Origin: a bacterium
GTDB taxonomy: Bacteria; Zhuqueibacterota; Zhuqueibacteria; Oceanimicrobiales; Oceanimicrobiaceae
Direction: 5' to 3'
Length of the DNA: 15,206 nucleotides
NCBI GenBank assembly: GCA_046757025.1
Contig: JBHHXN010000126.1
Location: forward strand, 1 to 15,206
Shown: piece by piece, positions 289-15,117 of the stretch
Numbering within the stretch: the stretch's first letter is position 1
Layout: each line of letters starts with the position of its first letter
Position numbers and translations under genes: made by a program
Notes under the pieces: generated by a model
Databases searched by the model: none
What the model saw: the letters and a program-made list of their open reading frames with translations, nothing else
Told to the model about the DNA's origin: nothing

Positions 289-1941
289 CTATTTTTTGCA
301 GGTCATCCCCGGCTGCACGATTTCTTTGCCTTCCTTTTCTTTGGCTTCTTTGACGATGCGGCGGACATCGGCTAGCAATTGTTTGGCATCGAAAACGATG
401 CCGTCTTTGATGGTGTATTTCACGCCGCCCACTCGCACCACCTTATTCTGCTCATTCACTTTGATGGCGCCGGTGCCGTAAAGCACTTTCAAATTTTGCA
501 AGGGATTTTCTTCCACCACAACCAAATCCGCAAACTTACCGATTTCAACGGTGCCAATTTCGCTTTCCAATCCTAGAGCCTCGGCGCCTTTGAGCGTGGC
601 CGCCCGGATGACTTCCAGCGGATGAAAACCCGCTTCCTGCAGCAGCTCCAATTCGCGAATGTATCCGAATCCGTACACTTTGTAAATGTAGCCCGCATCC
701 GAACCCACGGTCACCCGGCCGCCGCGGTTTTTGTATTCATTGATAAACGTCATCCACAATCGATAATTGTTTTTCCAGGCGATTTCATCCTCGGTGCTCC
801 AGTAAAACCAGAAGGAGCCGTGTGCCTGGCGATTGGGACGAAAGAACTCCCACAGGGAGGGCAGGGTGTATTCCTCGTGCCATTCTGCCCGCCGCGCCCT
901 CATGAAATCGCGGGTGGCATCATAAATGGTCATGGTGGGATCGATGGTAAAATCCAGCGCGATAAGCTCGTTCATCACGGCATTCCAGTGCTCGCTGAAT
1001 GGCGGCGCAACTTGCTGCCAGAGACGGCCGGCCTGGCCAAAACGGTGCTGTTCATCGTTGTAGTTGAAATCTAGTGGAAAGTCCTGCACCGTGCGCTCCG
1101 TAAACAACGCTTCAGGTAAACCGTACCAGTGTTCCATGGTGGTCAAACCCAGGCGGGCGGTTTGCAGCGCATTCAAGCGCGCCACGCTCAACTGCGGATG
1201 ATGAGAAGCGGTTCGAAGTCCCTGTTTTTTTGCTTCATCGAGTGTGGCCGCCATGATATCAGGACGAATGGAAAATATTTTCAAACCATCCGCTCCCTGT
1301 CTGGCCACCTTCTGCACCCACTTACGCGCTTGCTCCGGCGTGGAAATGGGTCCGTCATGACCTCGGCCAAACACCACATACGCCTGAATTCGAGGCGCAG
1401 TGATCTGGTTGCGGCGGCTTTTCGCTTTGTGCTCCAACACCCAATCCAGGCCGTTGCCGGAGCCGGGATCGCGAATGGTCGTGATGCCGTGTCCCATCCA
1501 GAGCTTGAACACATACTCTGCGGGCGTTCCCTGGGCCACGCCACCGATATGAGCGTGCATATCTACAAAGCCGGGCAAGATGTACATGCCTTCCACATCC
1601 AGCTCTTTGTCGCCAGGCTGAGCCTTTGGGCGTCGATTTTTATCGATGGGCACGCCGGGCGCGCCCACACTTCGAATTCGGACGATGCGGTTTTTTTCGA
1701 TGACGATGTCCACGGGACCAAATGCCGGCGCCCCGGTGCCATCGATGAGCGTGCCTCCTAGCAAAATCAGTCGTTCATACGGACCATCGCCTTCAGTGCG
1801 TAGCGGGGCCTTTGGAATGGAACGTGATCTCTGTTGTGCAATTATATCACCGTAATAAAAGAAAAACGTGATTCCAATCAACAGCATACAAAATAGCACG
1901 ACACGCTTTTGTTTCAACGACTGCTCATGTACGATTACCAT
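289..1941 (-). CDS. Amidohydrolase superfamily protein (metal-dependent TIM-barrel hydrolase), probably exported or membrane-anchored; substrate unknown
   Basis: 550-aa ORF. It has the N-terminal beta-sandwich segment (GGTLIDGTG...DIVIEKNRI), the PGFVDMHAH HxH metal motif, GITTIRDPG, candidate Lys (DGLKIF), His (SHH, MEHWYG) and Asp (VGSDAG) ligands, and the C-terminal IGTVEIGKFADLVVV motif. The N-terminus is hydrophobic (VVLFCMLLIGITFFFYY) and GAAAGGT lies upstream of the ATG. Confidence 0.88.
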   Translation of the reverse strand: MVIVHEQSLKQKRVVLFCMLLIGITFFFYYGDIIAQQRSRSIPKAPLRTEGDGPYERLILLGGTLIDGTGAPAFGPVDIVIEKNRIVRIRSVGAPGVPIDKNRRPKAQPGDKELDVEGMYILPGFVDMHAHIGGVAQGTPAEYVFKLWMGHGITTIRDPGSGNGLDWVLEHKAKSRRNQITAPRIQAYVVFGRGHDGPISTPEQARKWVQKVARQGADGLKIFSIRPDIMAATLDEAKKQGLRTASHHPQLSVARLNALQTARLGLTTMEHWYGLPEALFTERTVQDFPLDFNYNDEQHRFGQAGRLWQQVAPPFSEHWNAVMNELIALDFTIDPTMTIYDATRDFMRARRAEWHEEYTLPSLWEFFRPNRQAHGSFWFYWSTEDEIAWKNNYRLWMTFINEYKNRGGRVTVGSDAGYIYKVYGFGYIRELELLQEAGFHPLEVIRAATLKGAEALGLESEIGTVEIGKFADLVVVEENPLQNLKVLYGTGAIKVNEQNKVVRVGGVKYTIKDGIVFDAKQLLADVRRIVKEAKEKEGKEIVQPGMTCKK

Positions 1942-2629: not shown

Positions 2630-4762
2630 CTACTTGACGAAGATCATTTTTCGGGTGTCCACAAAATCATCGGTTTGCAATCGGTAAAAGTAAACACCTG
2701 CTGCTACTTCAACGTTGGAGTCATTGCGGCCAAGCCAATCATAGGAATAAAATCCCGAAGGCTGAACCTGGTCAACCAGGGTACGAATACGCTGCCCCAA
2801 AAGATTGTATATCTCTAATTTCACGAAAGTCTGTTTGGGCAGCTCATAGCTCAAAACGGTGGAATTGTTGAATGGATTTGGATAATTGGGGAACAGAGAA
2901 TTGATTTCGATTTGCGTGGTATCGAGTACAATTTCATCGTGTTTGGGATTGAATAAAATTGCGCCGGTTTCGCCGACGATAGTACAAGTGTTGGCGCTGG
3001 TTACGTGAACGCCGTATAAGTTCTTAAAGGTGCCGCTTTGTTCTTTCAACCATCTCAGGCCGCTGCTTTTGGTGCGAAAAATCACGCCGCCGGTTAATTC
3101 ATCGTCGAGAAAACCGCCCACTATGATTCCGTTGTTAAGATCGGTAAAATAAACATCGAAAAAATCCCAGCTCGAGCTGCTATCCTGAACGGACCAGGTG
3201 GTCCCACCACTAGTGGTATGCAGAATAATGCCGCCGTTGCCAACCACGGTGCCTTTCTTGTCGTTGATAAAAAACACGCCGTTCAAATGATTGCTCACTC
3301 CGCTCATTTGCACTACCCAGGACGTCCCACCGGTGTGGGTCTGCAGTATGGCGCCGTCATCGCCGACGATGGTGGCAGTATATCTGGTGGCAAAGAAAAT
3401 GTCATTTAAATTTTCGTTGGATGGACTGGCAATTTTTGCCCAGGTAAGGCCGCCGTCGGAGGTCAAAAGGATGGTACCGCTATCCCCGACTGCGACGCCG
3501 GAGAGCTCATTCACCAGGAACACGTCGTTCAAACTCTGATTGGTTCCGCTCAACTGCGGAACCCAATCCACGCCGCCGTTGACTGTGTTCAAAATGATTC
3601 CCTCATCTCCCACAATGATACCGTGTTGCAAATCAGCAAAAGACACCCCCTTTAAATCTTCTTCTGTCCCACTAAATTGCATCGTCCATTCAACGCCGTT
3701 ATCTTGCGTATGCAGAATGGCACCGTCTGTACCGACTACGAAGCCTGTCAGAGAATCCGGAAACGCCAGGTTCAATAGATCTTCAGTGGTGCCTTTGGTC
3801 AAATTTACCCAGGTTGTCCCCCCGTCAATTGTGCGCAGTACCGCGCCGTTAAATCCCACCGCCGTCCCAACATTTGTATCCAGGAATTGAACAGCGCGCA
3901 GATCATCGTCAAAATCACTTTCCTGACGAAGCCAGTTTTCACCGCCGTTCGTAGTGCGCACGATGAACCCCCGGCTGCCGACTGCGGTGCCAGTCAGAGC
4001 ATCGGTAAAGTGCACGGCCCGAAACGCCCTTCTGGTACCGGTTTCCTGAGAAACCCAGCTTTTGCCGGCATCGGTAGATTTTAATATGGTGCCGCTTCTG
4101 CCAACGGCATAAACCGTGAGGCTATCCCCAAAAGAAACGCCCAACAATTCAACGGTGGTACCGCTCTGTTGCGGCGTCCAGGTCACTCCGCCATCCGTGG
4201 TACGAATGATGGTTGCCCGGCTGCCGACCGCCACACCCAGCTTTCGATCGTAGAACGAAACCGAACGCAGCCAGCGGTCGGTGCCACTGGTTTGCACTTC
4301 CCAGCTCAATCCACCATCCTCGGTGTGAAAAATCAAGCCATCCTGCCCGACCACCGTACCAAAATTTCTGTCCACAAAAGAGATTCCGCGAATGGATTTA
4401 TTCACACCGATATTTAATTGGTTCCAGTTTTTTCCGCCATCTGTAGTCCTGAGGATGGTTCCCTGAATTCCAATAGCTATCCCCAAATTGGTATCCGTAA
4501 AATAAACCCCCCGCAAGAAATGCAAGACTCCGCTATCCTGAACTTCCCAGGTTTTACCGCCATCGCGGGTGTGCAAAATCACGCCATCGCCGCCAACCAC
4601 CGTTCCGGTGTCGGGATGTACAAAAAACACTCCGTACAAATTGTTGCCCTGAGGAAGGGGATTTTGCCAGGAATATTTTTGAAAGGCAGGACTGCTACAA
4701 ATATCAAAAATGAATAGAAAAATCAGAATGACTGAAAGATAAATCGTTTTTCGAAAAATCAT
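2630..4762 (-). CDS. Secreted YCF48/BNR-repeat double beta-propeller protein with C-terminal FlgD-Ig / T9SS type A-like sorting domain
   Basis: 710 aa with a signal peptide. About 14 repeats of about 41 aa follow the pattern [AV]VGxxGxI[LF]xTxDGGx[TS]W. The C-terminal LFPNYPNPFN...IYNLLGQRIRTLV...GVYFYRL...TRKMIFVK is typical of Por-secretion-tail/FlgD domains in FCB-group bacteria. Confidence 0.88.
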   Translation of the reverse strand: MIFRKTIYLSVILIFLFIFDICSSPAFQKYSWQNPLPQGNNLYGVFFVHPDTGTVVGGDGVILHTRDGGKTWEVQDSGVLHFLRGVYFTDTNLGIAIGIQGTILRTTDGGKNWNQLNIGVNKSIRGISFVDRNFGTVVGQDGLIFHTEDGGLSWEVQTSGTDRWLRSVSFYDRKLGVAVGSRATIIRTTDGGVTWTPQQSGTTVELLGVSFGDSLTVYAVGRSGTILKSTDAGKSWVSQETGTRRAFRAVHFTDALTGTAVGSRGFIVRTTNGGENWLRQESDFDDDLRAVQFLDTNVGTAVGFNGAVLRTIDGGTTWVNLTKGTTEDLLNLAFPDSLTGFVVGTDGAILHTQDNGVEWTMQFSGTEEDLKGVSFADLQHGIIVGDEGIILNTVNGGVDWVPQLSGTNQSLNDVFLVNELSGVAVGDSGTILLTSDGGLTWAKIASPSNENLNDIFFATRYTATIVGDDGAILQTHTGGTSWVVQMSGVSNHLNGVFFINDKKGTVVGNGGIILHTTSGGTTWSVQDSSSSWDFFDVYFTDLNNGIIVGGFLDDELTGGVIFRTKSSGLRWLKEQSGTFKNLYGVHVTSANTCTIVGETGAILFNPKHDEIVLDTTQIEINSLFPNYPNPFNNSTVLSYELPKQTFVKLEIYNLLGQRIRTLVDQVQPSGFYSYDWLGRNDSNVEVAAGVYFYRLQTDDFVDTRKMIFVK

Positions 4763-4957: not shown

Positions 4958-5001
4958 AAAAACACAAGCCCCGATTTCCTTTCCGTAGAATCCGCGGCTT
5001 G
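4958..5001 (-). terminator. Putative rho-independent terminator ending the phosphatase operon
   Basis: Minus-strand RNA CAAGCCGCGGAUUC-loop-GAAAUCGGGGCUUG forms a 14-position stem with 2 mismatches and one G-U pair. It is followed by UGUUUUU and lies about 90 nt past the stop at 5090. Confidence 0.65.
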
Positions 5002-5025
5002 CATGGTAAATACAACCACTGGTGT

Positions 5026-5089: not shown

Positions 5090-6433
5090 TTATTCTTCCT
5101 CTACCAGTACACGCACATTCCTGGGTGCTTTTGGCAGTTCATTGTCCTGTTTGTCTGTCACGGAGGTTGCCATGAAAATCACCGGTGAGCCATCCAAACC
5201 TGGTGAAGCGGCGGTCACCGTAACCGTTTCGGCGGTGTTTCCGAAAGTCAGAGTGGTAGTGGCGCGGCCATTGAATCCGGTCACCAACGGTTGACTGTTG
5301 GACAGCGAACCTGAACCGAACACGATTTCGAATTGCACCTCAACCCCGCTAACAGGCTGGTCGTTGCTATCACGAACCTCGACCACGAATGGTTCCGGCA
5401 AAGCCGTGCCCACGAGTCCGGTTTGATCGTTACCCGATACCATGACGATTTGTGTGGCCCTAGACGGCTCCGGAATCAATCCCGGCTTTGGGTTTGGGGA
5501 ATAATATTGCTCATCGAATACGGTGCCATCCGCCAGAATATGCCGCAAACGCAGGGATTCGCCGTCCACGGTTAGCTCGGTGTAGCCGTACTCTTCGGTC
5601 TTGGCTTCCAGCATGTAACCGTTTCCGCCGTAATTAGAAGAAAAGGAATAAGAGGAAGCGCCGCCATTTCCGGTGACCACCTGTACGGTGCCTTTGACGG
5701 GATCCAGCGGCGGTTTTGGATCGCCATTCAGCTCCAGCTTTTTACTGCGGGCATAATAGTGGGCGTGACCGTTAAAAATCATGTCGCAGCCGTGCTGATA
5801 AAGGGGGATCCCCCAGGTATCGTGAATTTCGCCTTCGTAGCTTTTGGGTCCGAAATCAAAAATCGGGTAATGCCAGAAAACGAACAGCCAGGTTTTGGGG
5901 TTGTTTTGAATGGCCTCCATCATCATGGTGTATTGCTCGCCGGTCATGGAAGAAGGCCCCGAATCTAAAATAATAAAACGGGCGTTTTCATAATCAAACA
6001 CAAAATATTTACCTTCGTGCCCGAATTGTTGCGCCTGTCCCGACAGGAATTCATTCCAATTTTGCAAGCCGGTGGGATCTTTAATTTTGTCATGGTTGCC
6101 TGGTGTGGACATGTACCTGGGCGGGGATTGATTCTGACCGGTCCCGCCGAGCACGTCATCACATGCCTTTTGCCAGATTTCCCAGTCGCTTTTGTTCATA
6201 CCTTTGGCAACGACATCCCCGACGTTGATCATGAATTTATAATCGGGTGTGTTTTTCACGATCGCTTGCAACACTTCGCGATGTCGAGAATCACTGCTGC
6301 GGGTATCGCCGTAGGCGATCCATTTCCAGGATTGACTGAAACCCGAAGCGGGTAGTAAAACTGAAAAAATGAGTAAAATCCACAGACCCCCTTTCAAAAA
6401 GCAACTTTTGTTTCGTGCATTTCTTGTTTTCAT
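5090..6433 (-). CDS. Secreted calcineurin-like metallophosphoesterase (PAP-like, lacking the Tyr ligand) + Big_1-type Ig domain + conserved C-terminal tail
   Basis: Motifs YGDTR, VGDVVA, PGNHD, FWHY, GHAH. The start is moved from 6460 to ATG 6433 (GGAG upstream), giving a signal peptide ending GFS|Q. An Ig-like domain (SGNDQTG..G..L..PFVVEVRD...PVSGV.V.F) precedes the tail DNELPKAPRNVRVLVEEE. Confidence 0.85.
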   Translation of the reverse strand: MKTRNARNKSCFLKGGLWILLIFSVLLPASGFSQSWKWIAYGDTRSSDSRHREVLQAIVKNTPDYKFMINVGDVVAKGMNKSDWEIWQKACDDVLGGTGQNQSPPRYMSTPGNHDKIKDPTGLQNWNEFLSGQAQQFGHEGKYFVFDYENARFIILDSGPSSMTGEQYTMMMEAIQNNPKTWLFVFWHYPIFDFGPKSYEGEIHDTWGIPLYQHGCDMIFNGHAHYYARSKKLELNGDPKPPLDPVKGTVQVVTGNGGASSYSFSSNYGGNGYMLEAKTEEYGYTELTVDGESLRLRHILADGTVFDEQYYSPNPKPGLIPEPSRATQIVMVSGNDQTGLVGTALPEPFVVEVRDSNDQPVSGVEVQFEIVFGSGSLSNSQPLVTGFNGRATTTLTFGNTAETVTVTAASPGLDGSPVIFMATSVTDKQDNELPKAPRNVRVLVEEE

Positions 6434-6496
6434 CACCATCTCCATAAAATCAATTTGCATAAACTTTTATTCAAAATAGATCGACAGATTTCGCAT

Positions 6497-8191
6497 TTAA
6501 TCGCCACCGACGACGATTCGCACATTGGTGGGCGCGGCAGGCGGGTCCGTATCCTGAGGACCTGCATTGGCGTGTGCCGTAAATATTTGTGGCGAGCCCG
6601 TCAAACCGTTTGCGCTGGCTGCAACCGTCACAGTCCCGGCTTCGCTTCCCAAAGTCAGCACTGTCGAAGCTCGACCGTGAGCGCTGGTAATTTGCGGTTG
6701 ACTGTTAGAAAGGGCTCCAGAGCCCGAGGTTATCTCAAACGTCACGGCTACGCCGCTCACAGGATTGTTTTGGTCATCTCTCACCTGCACTTCAAACGGC
6801 AAAGGAAGGGTGGCGTTGACAAGCGCGGTTTGGTTGTTGCCTGAAATCATCACCAGTTGCGTGGCTGGACCGGTTTGATTATTGCCTTTTTTAATGGTAA
6901 AATAGTCGCGTATCTCTCCTTTATCGTCAATAAATTTAGCATCTAAAACGTTGCCAGCGATGTCCAAAATGACCGATCCCAATTCATCCAGCGAGTAAAA
7001 CATGGCCGGATGATTCAAGGAACCGCCGCTGGTTTTGCCGGAGCTGCCTGCCACAATATAGACCGCCCCTTCGTGGCCAGCCGGTCCCAAAGTCGCTTTC
7101 ACATACGCCCCATCGACGTCTTCGCGACCGCTGCCCGAGTCTAATTTCATCTCATCGGTAAGCATGCTCGATTTACCGTAATGCCCATCGATCAAATAGG
7201 AACGTTCATAAGAATGGCTGTGTCCGCTCATAACCAGATCGACCCCGGCCTCTTCCAGGCGGGTCACAGCTCGTTCGCGCATATCCACCAGCTCGCTTTC
7301 GCTGTCGGAATTGTGGGAGCCTTTGCTGTATGGCGGGTGGTGCCAGAAAGCGATGTTCCAATCTTTATCATTGGCAGCCAGGTCTTCTTCCAGCCAGGTC
7401 CACATGGGGCTGCTGGACTGCCGCATTTTGCCAGAAGTCGATTCCAGACAAATAAAATGAATGTTGCCGTAATCGAATGAATAATAGGCTTCGGTGCCGG
7501 AGGCAATTCCCCCGGCTTCGCCATTGGTGGGGAAAGTAAAAATACGATAGTAATCATCGCCGTTGGTCCAACTGCCATGGACCTTCGGCCCTCGGTCGTG
7601 ATTGCCGCGGGTTGCCCATAAAACCGATTTTCGCAGCATCGCCTCATACATATTCTCAAAAACCGCTAACTGGTATTCTTCATCCGTACCGTTGTTGTAA
7701 GCGTTATCTCCCAACATAATCCAGAGATCGGTGTGGCGATTGCCCGTGTAATTATAGTAAGCATCTCGCACCGCACGTGCATTGTCGTTTTTAGTGCCGG
7801 AATCACCCAGAATCCAAATCCGCGTAGGCTTGGGGGTGTTAGGCGGCGGCGAAGTTACAAAAAAATAACTGGCGTCATCCCCGGCTAATATTTGACTTGT
7901 GCTGCCAACTGCATAATAATATTTTGTATCCGGGGAAAGGCCGGTCAACTCCACTTCATGCTCAGTGGAGGTCTGATTTATTTCTGCACTCAGGTTTAAC
8001 TTACCGGGAGCGCTGCCGTAGCGTACCTGACTGTCTGTGGCCTGATCCGTTCGCCATTTCACCACCACGCTGGTAGATGTGCCAATTTGCAGATACGGCC
8101 CGCGTATTACATTTTGAGTAAGCGCTTCGCCACTTAGCGCCGTGAAAAAGATGAGTAATGAAATCGTCCTGATGTTTAAAACATGCTTCAT
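6497..8191 (-). CDS. Secreted purple acid phosphatase family protein (N-terminal FN3-like PAP domain, metallophosphoesterase, Big_1-type Ig, conserved tail)
   Basis: All five PAP motifs are present: GDSG, GDNAY, GNHD, FWHH, GHSH. The N-terminal domain reads RGPYLQ...VVKWRT...HEVELTGLSPDTKYYY. Signal peptide ALT|Q; GGAG RBS; tail DTDPPAAPTNVRIVVGGD. Confidence 0.9.
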   Translation of the reverse strand: MKHVLNIRTISLLIFFTALSGEALTQNVIRGPYLQIGTSTSVVVKWRTDQATDSQVRYGSAPGKLNLSAEINQTSTEHEVELTGLSPDTKYYYAVGSTSQILAGDDASYFFVTSPPPNTPKPTRIWILGDSGTKNDNARAVRDAYYNYTGNRHTDLWIMLGDNAYNNGTDEEYQLAVFENMYEAMLRKSVLWATRGNHDRGPKVHGSWTNGDDYYRIFTFPTNGEAGGIASGTEAYYSFDYGNIHFICLESTSGKMRQSSSPMWTWLEEDLAANDKDWNIAFWHHPPYSKGSHNSDSESELVDMRERAVTRLEEAGVDLVMSGHSHSYERSYLIDGHYGKSSMLTDEMKLDSGSGREDVDGAYVKATLGPAGHEGAVYIVAGSSGKTSGGSLNHPAMFYSLDELGSVILDIAGNVLDAKFIDDKGEIRDYFTIKKGNNQTGPATQLVMISGNNQTALVNATLPLPFEVQVRDDQNNPVSGVAVTFEITSGSGALSNSQPQITSAHGRASTVLTLGSEAGTVTVAASANGLTGSPQIFTAHANAGPQDTDPPAAPTNVRIVVGGD

Positions 8192-8344
8192 AATACGGCT
8201 CCGTCGGGTTTGGTGCGCTTATTTTTCCTTTTTAATCGTTTGATGGTTTAGAACATGATTTCTTCCCTCATAAAAAATATGAATCTGTAAATCCTTTCCC
8301 ATCTTCGCAAGCTCCTGTTTAACTGCAGTGGAAATTTCTCTTGT

Positions 8345-10024
8345 TTATTCTCCGCCAACCTGCACCCGCACATTCAACGGCGGCGCCGGCGGGGTGGTAT
8401 CTTGCTGTCCTTCCAAACCGGTGGCAGTGAAAGTGACCAGAGAATCCGAAAGACCGGCTGCCGTCGCGGTGACCTGAATACGGCCCGGCGTGGCGCCGAG
8501 TAACAGAGTCGCTTGCGCCCGACCGTTCGCCGCCGTCCTCACGGGCTGGCTTTCCTGTAAGGTGGCATCGCCAGAAGCCACCACGAAGGAAACGGCCACA
8601 CCCGATACCGGGTTGTTGCTGGCATCTTTTACCGCCACGACCAGAGGCGACGAAAGAGCGGTTCCTACCAACGCCGACTGATTATCGCCTGAAACCATCA
8701 CCAATTGAGCTGGCGGTCCGACTTCGAAATTGCCTTTTATCATGGTGAAATAATCCACCACGCTGCCCTGGTCGTCGATAAACGTGGCCTCCAGTCGGTT
8801 ATTTTCTATATCCAGTACCAGGGAACCCAAAATTTTTTGAGCATACAGCATCACAGGGTGATCAAATGAGCCTTTGCCAGCTTGCCCGGAAGAACCAGCC
8901 ACCACATAAACCGCGCCTTCATGCGGCGCCACACCCAGGGTGCGCTTTTTGTAAGCGCCATCGCCATCGATTCGACCATCGCCGCCATCCACCAACATGC
9001 TGTTATCAAACGAGCCGGAATCGCCGTAATGACCATCGATGAGGTACGACCGTTCATAATTGTGACTGTGGCCGCTCAAAATCAAGTCCACACCACCATC
9101 CTCTAAAATAGGCACGGCGAACTGCCGCATTAAAACTAGCGGTTTATCCGAATCCGAATCGTGGGTACCTTTGCTGTAGGGCGGGTGGTGCCAGAAAGCG
9201 ATGGTCCAGTCTTTGTCGTTGGCCGCCAGATCTTCTTCCAGCCAGGTGAGCATAGTGCTGCCCGTGGAAATTTCGCTTTTTTTATTAGAATTCAGACAGA
9301 TGAAATGAATGTTGCCGTAATCAAATGCATAGTACGATTCACTTCCTGAAGCCAGACCGCCGGCCTCGCCGTTGGTGGGCAAGGTGAATATGTCATGAAA
9401 AGGATTAGGGCCCGGCGATGAAGAGGAATTGACGTCGTGGTTTCCGAGGGTCGGCCACAACACCGACTTGATCAGCATGTCTTCGTACATATTTTCAAAC
9501 ACCGCCTGCTGATATTGCGCATCGGTGCCGCTGCTGTAGGCATTGTCGCCCAACATGAGCCATAAGTCGGTGTGGCGACTGCCGGTGAAATTATAGTACG
9601 CATCGCGAACCGCCCGGGCGTTGTCGTTTTTAGTGCCGGAATCGCCCAATATCCACAGCCGGGTGGGTTTGGCCTCTCCCGCCAGTGGCGAAGTGATAAA
9701 AAAATGTCTCTCGTCGCCGCCCGCAAGCGTTTGAGAGTCGGCGCCGATGGCATAATAGTATTTCGTGTCCGGGGAAAGATTGGACAGTCGCACTTCGTGC
9801 TCGGTTGTGGAGCCATTTTGACCGGCTTGTAAATTTAAATTACCCAAGTTGACGCCATATTTGACCTGACTGGCAGTAGCTTGATCCGTACGCCATCGGA
9901 CGATAACACTGGTTGGAGTACCACTTTGTAAATAGGGTCCGCGGATGACGGTTTGCGCTGATAAAAATCCATTCAAAGACAAAAAAAATGCTGCTATAAA
10001 AACAGAGCCCATTTTATAATTCAT
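8345..10024 (-). CDS. Secreted purple acid phosphatase family protein, paralog of 6497..8191
   Basis: Motifs GDSG, GDNAY, GNHD, FWHH, GHSH, with the same architecture and long identical stretches (e.g. WILGDSGTKNDNARAVRDAYYN). Signal peptide LSA|Q; tail DTTPPAPPLNVRVQVGGE. Confidence 0.9.
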   Translation of the reverse strand: MNYKMGSVFIAAFFLSLNGFLSAQTVIRGPYLQSGTPTSVIVRWRTDQATASQVKYGVNLGNLNLQAGQNGSTTEHEVRLSNLSPDTKYYYAIGADSQTLAGGDERHFFITSPLAGEAKPTRLWILGDSGTKNDNARAVRDAYYNFTGSRHTDLWLMLGDNAYSSGTDAQYQQAVFENMYEDMLIKSVLWPTLGNHDVNSSSSPGPNPFHDIFTLPTNGEAGGLASGSESYYAFDYGNIHFICLNSNKKSEISTGSTMLTWLEEDLAANDKDWTIAFWHHPPYSKGTHDSDSDKPLVLMRQFAVPILEDGGVDLILSGHSHNYERSYLIDGHYGDSGSFDNSMLVDGGDGRIDGDGAYKKRTLGVAPHEGAVYVVAGSSGQAGKGSFDHPVMLYAQKILGSLVLDIENNRLEATFIDDQGSVVDYFTMIKGNFEVGPPAQLVMVSGDNQSALVGTALSSPLVVAVKDASNNPVSGVAVSFVVASGDATLQESQPVRTAANGRAQATLLLGATPGRIQVTATAAGLSDSLVTFTATGLEGQQDTTPPAPPLNVRVQVGGE

Positions 10025-10047
10025 AAAAAAACCTTTCTGATTGATTT

Positions 10048-10908
10048 TTATCTGGCTGAAATTTGCTCCAGTGTCTTCTCCAACCAGGTTTTCATTCTTG
10101 AAATGGATTTGGTCTTTTGCCGACCGGGAGGAAGGGATGCAATGGCTTGCAACGCCTGGCGGTAGGCGAGGATTGCTTCGTCAATCCGCCCTGCTTCCTG
10201 AAGAATTTTACCGCGCCGCATCAACCATTTTTCTTTTCTTGCAGATTGAGCTGATATGAGATCAAGACGGGCTAATGCACCATCGTAGTTCTTTCTTTTC
10301 AGCTCCAGCTCAATGGCAAATAATTGCAGCGTGACGATGGGCCCTAAGATGTAGATACCTTCGTCCAATCCCTGAATCGCTTTGTCCAAATGCATGTGAT
10401 CAAAGCTGGCAAGCGCCCGCGCCCGCTCGATGAATAATTCGGGAGTCGGATTCTGTATCAACTTTATCGCCAGGGTGTAATCCTCGGCCGCGGTTAAATT
10501 TTCGTTTAATTTGGTGAGAACGCGCCCTCGGGTTACCAGCGCTTCGGGATTATTCGGATGCTTTGAGAGGTAGCGATTTAAAGGTACGATAGCTTGTTCA
10601 AACCGCCCTGCATCCAACAACATCATGCCACGGGCTAAATCTACCACATCCAGACGGGGATCTAAAATGGCTGCAGAATCATAGTCGGCTTGTGCTGCTT
10701 CCCAATCCAGATGATGACGGTGCAGTTCTCCGCGCTTCAAATAAAGAGCAGCGTTATCCGGAGCCAGCGCAATCTGTTTGGTCATCTCTGCAATCTGTTC
10801 ATCCAGCGGCCCATGCGCTAGTGCAAATGACGGTTTGAACAAGCAAATAATTGATAGCGCAAGTAAAATGGCGATCAAGAGAGCGAGTTTGCCGATTTTT
10901 ATTTCCAT
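10048..10908 (-). CDS. Exported tetratricopeptide-repeat protein
   Basis: 286 aa with a signal peptide ending ALA|HG. Several TPR-like helical repeats (LYLKRGEL...AQADYDSA, ALVTRGRVL...AAEDYTLAI, WLMRRGKILQEAGRIDEAILAYRQAL). It ends 23 nt before the PAP start. Confidence 0.85.
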   Translation of the reverse strand: MEIKIGKLALLIAILLALSIICLFKPSFALAHGPLDEQIAEMTKQIALAPDNAALYLKRGELHRHHLDWEAAQADYDSAAILDPRLDVVDLARGMMLLDAGRFEQAIVPLNRYLSKHPNNPEALVTRGRVLTKLNENLTAAEDYTLAIKLIQNPTPELFIERARALASFDHMHLDKAIQGLDEGIYILGPIVTLQLFAIELELKRKNYDGALARLDLISAQSARKEKWLMRRGKILQEAGRIDEAILAYRQALQAIASLPPGRQKTKSISRMKTWLEKTLEQISAR

Positions 10909-10941
10909 ATTAAAAATACGTTTAATCCGTTTTTTTCCAAA

Positions 10942-12306
10942 TCAATCACTTCCCCCAACGACTCTAACATTTTTTGGCGGATCCGGTGGAATGGAATCCG
11001 ACACCGGAATCAAAGCCATGTTTTGCCCAAAAAGCTGCTGACCGTCTGCTACCGTAATATTTTTCGACCAGTCCTGAAAGCCGTTTTTTGAGCAGTAAAG
11101 TTCATAGGAGCCCGCCGCAATGTTGTTGAAATGATAACGGCCTGTTGAGCCGGTTTGCGTTTCATAGCGGACACTTCTGCCGCTTTTCAACTGCACCAGG
11201 GCATTGGTGATGGGCTGGCGGTTGGCGCTATTTTCAACCACTCCGCTGACAGAGGTGACATCCGGCTGATTGTTGCTGCCGGTGCCGAAGGTCCAATCGG
11301 TCCAGGCGACATTTTTGCCGGGCTGGGCCGGCATTTTTGCGGGGAAGCTGGCGCCGTAAAAATAATTTATCACATGCGGGGTCCATTCATCGTCGCCTGT
11401 GGCAGGAAAATTGGCTTCGTTGTGCAGCCATTCAAACGCCCGCAGCATGGCTTTGTCTTCCCAATTCCAGACGTCGTAGCCCGCCCGGTACAAAATCACG
11501 GCTTGTGCCAGCACCCCTTGCAGGGCGCCGTAAACGTAATTGGCTTTGGGTGGCGGCCATTTAAAACCGCCGTTTCTCCGCTGATCATCCGGCAGGACGC
11601 CGTCGATGGAATGGCCGTCGCGGGTAGCGCCTTTAGGGTTGATACCAACCGGATTATCGGGATCCGCCTGCCAGGAAAGCGCCCCCCAGGTAAAACCGGC
11701 GTAGGAAGCGCGATCGCCCAGCCAGCCCTTGAATACCTGTGCGGTGCGCTCGATCTCTTCCTGATCGCCCAGATAAACCGCCACCGCGGCCCGGCTGGCG
11801 CCGGCGTGCGTTCCCCAATTGTTGCCGCGATCTTCATGGGTCGATTGCAGGGTGCGGCCGCTGAGCGATTCGGTGAGCGTTTCCCGCAGCCAGGCGCGAA
11901 AACGCTGATCTTTATCGGCCGGCAAGCCTACCAGATCCGCTGAGATCACATAAGCAGCCAGCTCGCGGCCCAGCGCCAGCGTGCGGCCGCCTTTTTCGGT
12001 ATCGATGGCTTTCATGCAAGCATCGATGACTTCGTTGCGATAAGATTCGTCGCCGCTGCGCGCGTAAACCAACGCTTTGGCCATCACCCTCACATTGACT
12101 TCATCTTCCTGATTCGAAACATTTGGCGTGCCGGTCGCTCTATCGGCCTCGGCTTTGAGATTGTTCCAGGCGGGACCGGATGTGGGCAGGTTCTGCAATT
12201 CCTCTTGAGTTATCCACATTTCTTTGCCCTGAGCCAGGACGGTCTCTCTGCTCCATAAAAGGCTCAAAATGGTCGCAATGAACATCAACGCTTTGTATTT
12301 ACGCAT
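10942..12306 (-). CDS. Secreted alginate-lyase-like (alpha/alpha toroid) protein + carboxypeptidase-regulatory-like beta-sandwich + conserved tail
   Basis: The start is moved from 12333 to ATG 12306 (GAGGAG RBS); signal peptide VLA|Q. A helical domain carries GNNWGT, resembling the NN[HW] motif of Alginate_lyase-family proteins. The C-terminal SVSGVV...PITNALVQL...TGSTGRYHF..IAAGSYEL..SKNGF module precedes the tail DSIPPDPPKNVRVVGGSD. The lyase assignment is by motif only. Confidence 0.65.
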   Translation of the reverse strand: MRKYKALMFIATILSLLWSRETVLAQGKEMWITQEELQNLPTSGPAWNNLKAEADRATGTPNVSNQEDEVNVRVMAKALVYARSGDESYRNEVIDACMKAIDTEKGGRTLALGRELAAYVISADLVGLPADKDQRFRAWLRETLTESLSGRTLQSTHEDRGNNWGTHAGASRAAVAVYLGDQEEIERTAQVFKGWLGDRASYAGFTWGALSWQADPDNPVGINPKGATRDGHSIDGVLPDDQRRNGGFKWPPPKANYVYGALQGVLAQAVILYRAGYDVWNWEDKAMLRAFEWLHNEANFPATGDDEWTPHVINYFYGASFPAKMPAQPGKNVAWTDWTFGTGSNNQPDVTSVSGVVENSANRQPITNALVQLKSGRSVRYETQTGSTGRYHFNNIAAGSYELYCSKNGFQDWSKNITVADGQQLFGQNMALIPVSDSIPPDPPKNVRVVGGSD

Positions 12307-12463
12307 GACCGAATACTCCTCAAATTCATTCATCTACTTACTATTCGCATGCCCGGTAGCTGTACTTAATTCGGCTCGTTTTGTCCTTTTCTATATCGCT
12401 TTTTGTCGGTCAAAAAAATTAACTTGTCAGCTCACTGTATTTAATCGTTTGCGATTCGACTTA

Positions 12464-13594
12464 TTAATTGAGTGCTTTCGTGCCGTGTGTCCAGTCTGTC
12501 CAGCCCACTTGCTTGCCAAATTTAACCGGCTTTCCATTCCAGAAATTGGTACCGTAAACCCGATCGATCAAAGGCAATATCCAGCGATCATCGCCTTTGG
12601 CCGGTGCATTCCCGCGCTGCGGATCCTGCTGCCAGGAAACGGCCCGCAATATGGCCTGGTCGCCCCAGCTCCAACTGTCGAAGCCTGCCCGCGAGAGCAA
12701 ATAGGCCTGTCCCACGGCGCCTTGCAAACCGCCCCAGACATGGACATCCGTACGAGGCGGCCAGCTTATTTCGCTGTCCGGGCAGCCGGCCCGGCGCTGA
12801 TCATCGGGCTGAACGCCGTCCACATCCCGCATGTCCCCCACCACCCTCATTTTCGTGCCTTTAGGCAGAATGCCAACGGGATTTTTCGGATCGGCCTGCC
12901 AGCATAAATCGCCCCATTTAAATCCGCTGTACGATTTGCGGTCACCCAGCCAGCCCTTGAAAACAGCCGCCGCCCGATTCAGATCGTCCAGTTTGCCGAG
13001 GTAGAGGGCGGCTGCGATGCGCACCACACCCGCTTGCGTACCGTGATTATTACCACGAATTTCATGTTTCTGAATCTGCGTCTTCTTGTCGAGCCGTTTT
13101 TTGTAAACCACGTACTCCAGCCACTTCCTGAATTTCTGGTCCTTTTCTGCATCCAGCGACTTCAAGTCGATGAGATCCGCGGCGAGGATGTAACCGGTCA
13201 CCGTTCGGCTCAGCGAAAGAGAATTGCCATCCGATTCCACTTTATTGTCAACCGCTTTGATGATATGCTCGGCCACCTCTTGTAATCTCTTTTGGTCATT
13301 GAGCCGGGCCGCAACCAGTGCCGCCGCCATCACTTGCGTATCGTGCACACTGCCATGCCCGCCTTTCGCCTGCGCCAAATGTAATTTATCGGCCACTGCT
13401 TTTAAATTTTTCCAGGCCCTGCCGGTAGTTGGAAGCACAGCCAGCTCCCGTTTACTCAACCAGATGCCATTGGCATGAATCTTCTGAATGGCAGGAAGCT
13501 GGGTGGATTCGGCCTTTTCGCTGAATTTTGCCTCGGAGGAACAGGCAAACAACTGGACAACGACGAGTAATAAATAAGGCAATTTTTTATTCAT
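12464..13594 (-). CDS. Lipoprotein, alginate-lyase-like paralog of 10942..12306, without the tail
   Basis: The true start is probably ATG 13594 (GGAGAGG RBS; MNKKLPYLLLVVVQLFA-C18 lipobox) rather than 13795, which overlaps the phytase. It shares VFKGWLGDR.SY.GF.WG.L.WQADP.NPVGI.PKG, DGV.PDDQRR and WTDWT with its neighbour and carries GNNHGT. Confidence 0.7.
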   Translation of the reverse strand: MNKKLPYLLLVVVQLFACSSEAKFSEKAESTQLPAIQKIHANGIWLSKRELAVLPTTGRAWKNLKAVADKLHLAQAKGGHGSVHDTQVMAAALVAARLNDQKRLQEVAEHIIKAVDNKVESDGNSLSLSRTVTGYILAADLIDLKSLDAEKDQKFRKWLEYVVYKKRLDKKTQIQKHEIRGNNHGTQAGVVRIAAALYLGKLDDLNRAAAVFKGWLGDRKSYSGFKWGDLCWQADPKNPVGILPKGTKMRVVGDMRDVDGVQPDDQRRAGCPDSEISWPPRTDVHVWGGLQGAVGQAYLLSRAGFDSWSWGDQAILRAVSWQQDPQRGNAPAKGDDRWILPLIDRVYGTNFWNGKPVKFGKQVGWTDWTHGTKALN

Positions 13595-13677
13595 ATTTTC
13601 CTCTCCCTCGTAAGAAATTTGGTGTACGCAGCATGAATTTATCGAAGTTAAAAGTAAAAATTCACAATTGAAAGAAA

Positions 13678-14796
13678 TTATTCGTCCGGACTCACTCTGA
13701 CATTTTTTGGCGGCGCCGGCGGCGTGGTATCCGTGGCCGGCGGACCGCCCCCGTTCACACAAATAGTCAGGTTGCTTTCTGCAATTTGAGCCCAATCGTA
13801 AAGATGGTAGCGGGCGCCGGCTTCATCGTGTGCCACCACGAAGCCGTTGGGAAAATTCGGCGGCACGCCTGCAGAATTCACATCCAATCCATCGGTACCC
13901 AGACCAGACTTTCCTTTGTGGTCCAACGGCTCGATGGTTTTGATGAATTTATTATCACCCTGCCGTTCATAAATTTTAAAGGTAGAATTGCCCTGGCTGG
14001 AGAGCACGAGATAACCCGTGCCATCTTTGCAAGCGTACAAAGCCAGGCCCTCTCGGTCCCCGGAGATGCCGTCTTTGGAAGCAAAAAAGCCGATTTCATC
14101 TGCGCTTTGCTGTGGGTCGGCATAAAATTTGTGAATACCTTTGGCTTCTTCTGTTATGTACACAAAAGCCAGTTCATCATCCGCTACAAAGCCCTCCGCG
14201 GTACCGCCGTTGTAATTTAAATCGCGTACGGCGGTGACGGTCACGTCTTCACCCGTGCCGTCGTCTTCAATTCGATATTGACGAACTTCTCCGCCGTTTT
14301 TGGGTCGTTCAAATACAAATAAAGCGCCATCCATGGCCCGTCGATACAACCCAAATCCATAGCTATCTTTCTGAATGTCATTACCTTTGCTGTCTTTGTC
14401 GGCAATTTGCACCAGGACGTCCCCACTGCTATAATCGCGATTCACTTTAAACACGGCTAATTTACCGGCATCGCGTAAATTGGCCGCCACCACATCCACC
14501 ATCACGCCTCCCAACTGAATTCCATAGCGCACATCCACGTTGTTGGTCTTCGTACCTTGTTGAATATGTTGCAATTCGTTTCCGTCCATGTCCCACACAT
14601 AAATGCCGGCATCTTTATCGGTGCCAATGATGACGCTTTTAGAAGGATCCGTTGGATGAATCCACACAGCCGGATCATCTGCGTTGCCGGCAGTGGGTGC
14701 GGTACTCACCGTCGGCGCCACTACGGTTTGCCCCTGGATAGTACTACCAATCAATAAAAGAACAATACCAATCTGCGGTGATATGCGATTCTTCAT
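13678..14796 (-). CDS. phy: Beta-propeller phytase (3-phytase, Bacillus PhyC-like) with conserved C-terminal tail
   Basis: BPP signatures ADDPAVWIHP, IIGTDK, NNVDVRY, YG, AEGFVADDE, DREGLALY, SSQGN, TDG and FPNGFVVAHD. Signal peptide IQG|Q; GAGG RBS; tail DTTPPAPPKNVRVSPDE. Confidence 0.92.
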   Translation of the reverse strand: MKNRISPQIGIVLLLIGSTIQGQTVVAPTVSTAPTAGNADDPAVWIHPTDPSKSVIIGTDKDAGIYVWDMDGNELQHIQQGTKTNNVDVRYGIQLGGVMVDVVAANLRDAGKLAVFKVNRDYSSGDVLVQIADKDSKGNDIQKDSYGFGLYRRAMDGALFVFERPKNGGEVRQYRIEDDGTGEDVTVTAVRDLNYNGGTAEGFVADDELAFVYITEEAKGIHKFYADPQQSADEIGFFASKDGISGDREGLALYACKDGTGYLVLSSQGNSTFKIYERQGDNKFIKTIEPLDHKGKSGLGTDGLDVNSAGVPPNFPNGFVVAHDEAGARYHLYDWAQIAESNLTICVNGGGPPATDTTPPAPPKNVRVSPDE

Positions 14797-15100
14797 TGGA
14801 ACCTCATTTTCAATTCGAATTTTCGAACCATATTTTGGTTACCTTATTAAACTTTAACCATCCCCATGTTACTTACTAATATGTAATTAATTCACGTAGA
14901 AAAATTACAATTAAGTAAGAATCATTGTTAAATTGGATGAATTCGGTAACCTTTATTCATTCCCTAAATAGAAATAATTTCATTTTAACATTCGACTTAT
15001 TTATTTGATAATTCGATACTTTCATCGATTTATCCGTCGAAGTAACTCTGCCCAAAATACCTCGACTTCGACTCCATCAGCCAATTGTCTTCTTCTTTTT

Positions 15101-15117
15101 CGCAATTAGCGTGCCAA
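15101..15117 (-). promoter_or_regulatory. Sigma54 (RpoN) -24/-12 promoter upstream of the phytase operon
   Basis: The minus strand reads TTGGCACG-CTAA-TTGCG, matching the YTGGCACG-N4-TTGC consensus with exact GG-N10-GC spacing. It is oriented toward the phytase, with a predicted +1 near 15090. Confidence 0.75.

Follow-up and report, generated by a model that had tools for sequence, protein, structure and literature searches.

A C-terminal tag resembling an orphan FN3 strand on exported enzymes of a Zhuqueibacterota operon, and candidate socket proteins with type IX-like export domains

Why should exported enzymes of unrelated folds end in the same short peptide, and on what could this peptide dock? 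The question is raised by a seven-gene operon of a bacterium of the Oceanimicrobiaceae (phylum Zhuqueibacterota; GenBank assembly GCA_046757025.1, contig JBHHXN010000126.1). The stretch analysed, 15,206 nucleotides and referred to here as the window, is an entire contig of a 5.96 Mb genome which is 94.8% complete. The operon encodes a phytase-family protein, a lyase-like lipoprotein, a second lyase-like protein, a TPR protein, two purple acid phosphatase-like proteins (PAP1 and PAP2) and a third phosphoesterase. All except the lipoprotein and the TPR protein carry the tag. By its sequence, the tag is strand A of a fibronectin-III (FN3) domain, cut off by a stop codon. Elsewhere in the genome, separate genes encode FN3 domains which lack exactly this strand and are followed by a C-terminal domain (CTD) typical of type IX secretion system (T9SS) cargo. 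The sequences make it reasonably probable that the tagged enzymes insert their strand A into these strand-less FN3 domains, called sockets below, and that the CTD of the socket protein takes them to the cell surface.

The tag has the form D-x-x-P-P-x-x-P-x-N-V-x-V followed by three to six residues and the stop codon, and is present on five of the seven proteins. In the genome as a whole it ends 8 of 2931 open reading frames (ORFs) of at least 250 aa, five of which are those of the operon, on unrelated folds. One of the other three encodes a Golvesin-domain protein and lies in a polysaccharide locus, while the second codes for a DUF2271 protein and the third for an unknown protein; a position-weight scan built from the eight tags shows only that the genome has no further ones. 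Across an alignment of 24 tags, two prolines and one valine never vary; neither Pfam nor NCBIfam contains a model that matches the tag. A tag profile matches 67 of 150 genomes of the phylum, a figure that counts detected tags only, the profile being short and insensitive. Outside the family, 19 of the 20 matches checked are C-terminal. The tag recurs on at least eight unrelated folds, and its cargo elsewhere includes GH5, beta-helix and BNR proteins. A 31-position profile run against all proteins gave 12 matches at E values up to 0.001 and is too short to gauge breadth. The relation to FN3 is seen in an intact FN3 repeat protein, where the tag profile matches residues 866-883 and the socket profile, which covers strands B-G, matches the adjacent residues 890-961. 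DTTPPxAP is a very common FN3 start.

Two other explanations of the tag were rejected. It is not the last strand of an Ig domain lying upstream in the same protein, because the phytase tag directly follows the propeller and has no Ig domain before it. A transmembrane or sortase-type anchor was discarded on C-terminal sequence and hydropathy; the tagged C-termini lack a PEP motif, have no transmembrane helix and show no cluster of basic residues. The tagged Golvesin protein (L030:681-2483, corresponding to G000 C1:92680-94482) lies inside a large polysaccharide locus, and Golvesin-like C-termini account for many of the tag matches in the phylum; they may be core cargo.

A search for FN3 domains in the genome gave 36 matches. 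Three proteins, one long and two short, start their FN3 at strand B right after a signal-peptide-like stretch (contigs C148, C6 and C132; Table 1), and each of them has one socket. In three further cases a strand-less FN3 is preceded by another domain, and in one of these a dockerin follows. The strand-less start is found in all 27 family loci displayed (30 were fetched) and in every one of 14 loci from outside the family, and the socket profile matches 147 of 151 genomes of the phylum, intact FN3s included. SprA, PorU and 17 PorV-family matches over cut-off are present in the genome. None of the seven operon proteins has a CTD match, and none has a dockerin or cohesin match; the three dockerins of the genome all lie outside the operon, and its three cohesin matches are single ones on CTD-bearing proteins. 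A gene for a strand-less FN3 followed by a dockerin lies at G000 C45:12864-13985 (minus strand). Proteins of relatives (L198 and L199) have two FN3s and a dockerin-like end, and two-socket proteins with dockerin-like ends occur in G013 and possibly G018. Such FN3-dockerin proteins could bridge the tag system to the cohesin-bearing CTD proteins.

Tag and CTD appear to be interchangeable in related proteins. An orthologous phytase-PAP-lyase-TPR cluster in one genome (G010) encodes a phytase and a PAP which have FlgD_ig/Por_Secre_tail CTDs where the tag would be, and no FN3 separates enzyme and CTD. Among 120 homologues of the lyase-like protein (query included), 39 are tagged according to a strict pattern, 16 have a CTD, none has both and 65 have neither. 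The simplest explanation of this one-for-one replacement is that the tag would supply the export function of the CTD.

The two halves also occur joined. Five genomes of the family encode proteins of about 100 residues, here called extenders, composed of a socket plus a tag. An AlphaFold2 monomer model of an extender, from a 5-sequence alignment, has six strands and an unpaired tag (pLDDT 84, pTM 0.64), and Foldseek identifies the model as FN3. The linker looks too short for self-completion, so that extenders would chain. Longer proteins, referred to as stalks, begin with a strand-less FN3 followed by 18 or 19 intact repeats in G111 and G137 and by three in G138, and these repeats are joined by an EVS..IP..DxxPPxxP junction, as in the extender. 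Two of the three stalks (L200, L201 and L202) end CTD-like while the third runs off the region.

The operon and the long socket also resemble each other in their promoters. A sigma-54 site together with an exact TTAC-N6-GTAA box is found in all seven cluster promoters examined, this operon included. Among 13 long-socket promoters, 11 have the sigma-54 site and nine the exact box, which mostly lies about 101 nt upstream of the site. The genome contains 49 exact boxes, 26 of them intergenic, and only four loci carry a sigma-54 site no more than 330 nt away as well; two of the four are this operon and the long socket. In this genome, and in each of the six relatives viewed, the long socket is flanked by a sigma-54 activator on one side and wza on the other, wzz coming next wherever the contig extends that far, and the only Pfam matches of this activator are to sigma-54-interaction and helix-turn-helix domains. 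The best reading of these promoter motifs and neighbourhoods is that the operon and the long socket belong to an exopolysaccharide-linked sigma-54 regulon. Further exact boxes, at G000 C1:83765 and C86:12031, are located upstream of genes that belong to polysaccharide loci or are characteristic of them, with no nearby sigma-54 match.

In the mechanism that we propose, the enzymes and the socket protein, which acts as an adaptor, would both cross the inner membrane by Sec. In the periplasm the tag would complete the socket as its strand A, 1:1, and SprA/PorV would then take the CTD of the adaptor, so that the enzyme is co-exported. It would stay at the surface in the exopolysaccharide layer made by the co-regulated locus, where the displayed enzymes would free the phosphate of phytate and other monoesters and remodel uronic-acid polymers. 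The lipoprotein would have a lipid anchor in place of the tag and, in relatives, enzyme-capped stalks would form as extenders polymerise. The parts of this proposal are not equally secure. Docking of tag and socket in some form is highly probable, and carriage through T9SS seems fairly probable. More tentatively, and with some doubt, the split FN3 of bacteria of candidate division KSB1 might be a universal plug, in which a tail of 14-18 residues borrows a type IX CTD in trans, extenders build enzyme-capped stalks and one sigma-54 activator co-regulates the system with capsule export. The available text of PMC10202324 describes T9SS substrates as folding in the periplasm before CTD recognition, and that of PMC10994853 describes passenger domains as making no specific contacts with the translocon. 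Folding before export and contact-free passengers would allow the carriage of a complex, without demonstrating it.

A number of observations weigh against this mechanism. Neither the window nor any of the cluster loci viewed contains a socket gene, and the pairing of tag and socket therefore rests on sequence complementarity and shared regulation. The genome encodes eight tagged proteins as against some three to six sockets, and in the phylum matches to the socket profile are more widespread than detected tags (147/151 versus 67/150), so that some sockets may receive a strand from elsewhere or be stable with six strands. GldM, the one motor component searched for, gave no match in the genome, the control genomes being equally blank; the export machine may thus be non-canonical. 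Together, SprA, PorU and the 17 PorV-family matches without a GldM match could represent a motor-less or divergent type IX system. In those parts of the T9SS literature that were available, we found no description of a passenger being exported while bound non-covalently. This genome, at its 94.8% completeness, yielded no extender. The boxes of the operon are situated on the downstream side of its sigma-54 site and are able to form an RNA hairpin (z -2.8), and hence need not be an enhancer. Finally, the related genomes are not independent samples.

Docking and export could also be separate, since one strand-less FN3 gene with a CTD (G000 C69:5627-7117, minus strand) lies inside a cluster of genes which, by eye, are pseudopilin- and type II secretion-like. 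This gene and the blank search for GldM (with its equally blank control) would suit an arrangement in which tag and socket bind each other only once outside the cell, the enzymes leaving by type II secretion or in vesicles and the socket being an anchor, not a T9SS carrier. We regard this as unlikely, as comparison with the orthologous operon shows tag and CTD exchanged one-for-one and the short sockets, which are approximately a socket and a CTD alone, have their own PorV gene. A functionless tag, in which the stub left after loss of an FN3-CTD tail ends enzymes that are simply periplasmic, would account for DTTPPxAP, a common FN3 start which truncation could leave behind. It would however require the same truncation point on at least eight unrelated folds, with 19 of 20 matches outside the family C-terminal, and the orthologues with a CTD lack any FN3 that could have been truncated; the exactly complementary half, moreover, exists as separate conserved genes. 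We therefore think it very improbable.

The first-pass annotation of this DNA had proposed that the cluster of tagged, exported proteins docks on a cellulosome-like scaffold, where phytate would be dephosphorylated in sequence. Such a multivalent scaffold, acting under phosphate starvation, would fit the phytase-PAP fusions in single chains here and in G012, the two-socket, dockerin-like proteins of G013 and possibly G018, the socket-dockerin protein and cohesin domains of the present genome, and the PhoR/PhoB/PstS-like genes seen by eye near the cluster of one relative. The clear sockets here are single, however, and the operon proteins have no dockerin or cohesin. The related clusters vary from 3 to 6 genes, two members of the operon have a lyase fold, tags also end GH5, beta-helix and BNR proteins, and the shared box ties the operon to polysaccharide export. 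A scaffold with a sequential phytate pathway is thus not supported, and a small-scale version of it, for which the phytase-PAP fusions and the two-socket proteins speak, is improbable. What remains of the proposal is that the cluster is conserved, exported and tagged in five of seven members, with docking on something probable. The alternative that the annotation also offered, display in an extracellular matrix, agrees best with the data: the candidate docking protein appears to be co-regulated with polysaccharide export, and tags occur on glycan-active proteins of polysaccharide loci.

How does a strand-A tag compare with known sorting and assembly systems? Like T9SS cargo, the system combines a Sec signal peptide and a C-terminal export domain, here on the sockets, with homologues of SprA, PorU and PorV in the host. 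According to the available text of PMC10202324, PMC10994853 and PMC12618676, type A CTDs are sorted with PorV and type B CTDs with cognate PorP/SprF shuttles. The short sockets beside their own PorV-family gene recall type B cargo beside its cognate shuttle. Unlike canonical T9SS cargo, the enzymes have no CTD of their own, and the adaptor would lend them one in trans by strand complementation. The host also differs from known T9SS hosts in that KSB1 is outside Bacteroidota and in the missing GldM match. Searches of the literature, which covered mostly open-access main texts, found neither an orphan FN3 strand used as a tag nor an in-trans T9SS adaptor.

Donor-strand complementation is used by the chaperone-usher pili Pap and Fim and by type V pili. 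For the Pam pili of the candidate phyla radiation it is described in the available text of PMC13278184. The likeness lies in an incomplete beta-sandwich completed by a terminal strand of another chain, and the extender has the anatomy of a pilin. As far as sequence can tell, the acceptor fold is one strand short and the donor peptide is the missing strand. Differences are the FN3 fold, a C-terminal donor of strand A, and the use of the donor, grafted onto enzymes of many kinds, as a sorting tag; neither an usher nor a chaperone nor a pilin protease came to light here, in a search that was not exhaustive.

The PEP-CTERM/exosortase system, as described in the available text of PMC1569441, also has a short C-terminal tag on unrelated exported proteins and a link to exopolysaccharide loci. 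A sigma-54 promoter with an activator box, and a TPR protein, are further points of likeness with that account, the box here being compared with the PrsR box in its regulatory logic. Unlike PEP-CTERM proteins, the tagged enzymes have no PEP motif, helix or basic cluster, the receptor is a strand-less FN3 and not a transpeptidase, and the activator shows only the two Pfam matches given above. With the cellulosome, the system shares a small portable enzyme module that docks on a separate surface protein. It differs in that the enzymes have a strand of 14-18 residues and no calcium-binding dockerin domain, that the clear sockets are single here, and that the genome has three single cohesins on CTD-bearing proteins in place of a multi-cohesin scaffoldin. 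In terms of sequence, the system is without the feature that defines a cellulosome, PEP-CTERM proteins or canonical T9SS cargo; the enzymes themselves belong to ordinary families.

T9SS cargo is defined by possession of its own CTD. If a CTD can indeed be provided in trans, the type IX secretomes of KSB1, and probably others, are under-called, and complexes held together non-covalently can go through the translocon. With the tag as a guide, surface display can be predicted for many "hypothetical" proteins. Protein engineering, too, would gain a tool in a short FN3 tag/catcher pair of natural origin whose extender polymerises by itself.

Table 1. Coordinates of the operon, its tags and transcription signals (positions in the window) and of the three socket genes (contig:positions)
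Feature	Position	Strand	Basis or remark
Sigma-54 (-24/-12) promoter site TGGCACGCTAATTGC, TGGCAC-N5-TTGC	15102..15116	-	320 nt upstream of operon
TTAC-N6-GTAA palindromic box 1	14905..14918	.	likely activator site; could be leader-hairpin arm
TTAC-N6-GTAA palindromic box 2	14873..14886	.	motif
Beta-propeller phytase-family protein, 372 aa, signal peptide, tagged	13678..14796	-	PF02333 E 7e-60; PDB 1poo E 1.5e-48
Tag of phytase DTTPPAPPKNVRV, putative orphan FN3 strand A	13678..13731	-	motif, profile
Lyase-like lipoprotein, 376 aa, NNH motif, untagged	12464..13594	-	PF05426 (Alginate_lyase)
Lyase-like (alpha/alpha toroid) + CarboxypepD Ig domain + tag, 454 aa, NNW	10942..12306	-	Pfam Alginate_lyase + CarboxypepD_reg; fold prediction
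Tag of lyase-like protein, putative strand A	10942..10998	-	C-terminal motif
Exported TPR protein, 286 aa, untagged	10048..10908	-	Pfam TPR; conserved His at predicted mature N-terminus
PAP1, purple acid phosphatase-like, 559 aa, tagged	8345..10024	-	FN3-type N-domain, metallophosphoesterase, Big_1
Tag of PAP1, putative strand A	8345..8401	-	C-terminal motif
PAP2, purple acid phosphatase-like, 564 aa, tagged	6497..8191	-	62% identical to PAP1
Tag of PAP2, putative strand A	6497..6553	-	C-terminal motif
Third phosphoesterase, metallophosphoesterase + Big_1 + tag, 447 aa	5090..6433	-	Pfam Metallophos + Big_1
Tag of third phosphoesterase, putative strand A	5090..5146	-	C-terminal motif
Terminator-like hairpin then U-run	4962..5004 (about)	-	z = -3.5
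Long socket	C148:7655-9226		socket, 3 x Big_5, CTD
Short socket	C6:65568-66248		socket + CTD; PorV-family gene next
Short socket	C132:3728-4420		socket + CTD; PorV-family gene next

The seven ORFs are all on the minus strand, from 14796 down to 5090, with intergenic gaps of 83, 157, 33, 23 and 153 nt and a last one of 63 nt if the final gene starts at the ATG at 6433; an alternative upstream ATG at 6460 would reduce it to 36 nt. The sigma-54 site is the sole match to TGGCA-N6-TTGC on the minus strand (0.00015 under a Markov null), and an RpoN gene is present in the genome. Behind the last gene, none of 200 shuffles was as stable as the hairpin at about 4962-5004, for which a consensus terminator scanner gave no entry. 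The two gaps of about 150 nt contain no internal terminator-like structure (z 0.4 and 1.1). These signals suggest that the seven genes are likely to be co-transcribed as a sigma-54 operon. The N-terminus of each of the seven proteins is hydrophobic (maximum of 2.3-3.4 over 11 residues of the hydropathy profile) and no later stretch is strongly so, signal peptides being judged here from hydropathy profiles. The arrangement reported in the first-pass annotation (seven co-directional genes and their gaps, a bracketing promoter and terminator, and an export signal on every product) was thus reproduced. Gln occupies the likely first mature position in all five tagged proteins, with cleavage sites judged by eye; pyroglutamate-capped exported proteins of Bacteroidota have Gln at that position.

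The phytase matches PF02333 above cut-off and keeps the acidic residues of the site, which we take to be catalytic. It is homologous to the Bacillus beta-propeller phytase (PDB 1poo), as PAP1 and PAP2 are to plant PAPs (6git, 4kbp), with acidic and metal motifs kept; the enzymes here differ in their added Big_1 domains and tags. PAP1 and PAP2 have the Pfam architecture Pur_ac_phosph_N, Metallophos and Big_1 and the metal motifs DxG, GDxxY, GNH(D/E) and GHxH; the VxxH pattern was not matched by the motif scan, with WHHP visible in the sequence. The third phosphoesterase does not have the Tyr ligand of PAPs, with GDVVAK as against GDxxY. The probable activity of these enzymes is the release of phosphate from esters, phytate among them. 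General background on beta-propeller phytases is given in the available text of PMC9414882. Paralogous domains also occur fused in the genome, as lyase with phytase and CTD, PAP with CTD, and PAP with phytase in a gene cut by the contig end. These natural fusions, the phytase-PAP one being shared with G012, indirectly favour co-function of phytase and PAP.

The lipoprotein has a lipobox-like LFAC. For its tagged paralogue an alpha/alpha toroid is predicted (pTM 0.87); the best Foldseek matches are to PL17, PL38 and PL5 (E 1e-4 to 1e-2, TM 0.4-0.57), and there is no sequence match among solved structures. On the evidence of this model, both lyase-like proteins have the PL5/PL17/PL38 toroid fold. 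Where the lipoprotein has NNH, presumably the Asn-His catalytic pair of PL5/PL17/PL38 alginate lyases, the paralogue has NNW, as do 119 of 120 homologues. In the TPR protein, a His comes directly after the predicted cleavage site (HGPLDEQI), a pattern matched in 113 of 120 homologues. This could possibly be a metal-binding end of a metal chaperone for the adjacent PAP, of which the TPR protein is likely to be the untagged partner.

Conservation was assessed in regions fetched around the strongest PAP and tag matches among 20 genomes of the same family. Seven of them (G008, G013, G005, G001, G006, G012 and G009) have clusters with at least three of the operon's genes, tagged likewise, and G017 has a partial cluster at a contig end. 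Synteny, which the first-pass annotation suggested checking, is conserved in the form of related clusters and not in their exact content, as there is no exact seven-gene copy and each has three to six genes. They open with the phytase wherever the start is visible; the TPR gene immediately precedes PAP in six of seven, and a second propeller takes the place of the lyase in three of seven. The TPR orthologue is found in 8 of 151 phylum genomes, all of the same family, and the cluster is thus family-restricted within the genomes searched. In a GTDB phytase scan of 42 loci, only the two closest had a tagged phytase, with no socket in those two neighbourhoods; they are not counted as additional genomes, and one further pattern match proved spurious. 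A metagenome scan with the TPR protein gave one locus. In one relative (L071:12777-16000), a histidine kinase, a response regulator and a PstS-like gene, recognised by eye, are situated about 3 kb from the cluster; such genes were not seen beside the other cluster loci viewed.

Downstream of the operon, the window encodes a YCF48/BNR-repeat protein (2630-4762, minus strand) with its own T9SS-type CTD, whose homologues adjoin the cluster in G008, G013 and G012, and an exported amidohydrolase-family protein (289-1941, minus strand), with a 74% identical counterpart behind the cluster of G006.

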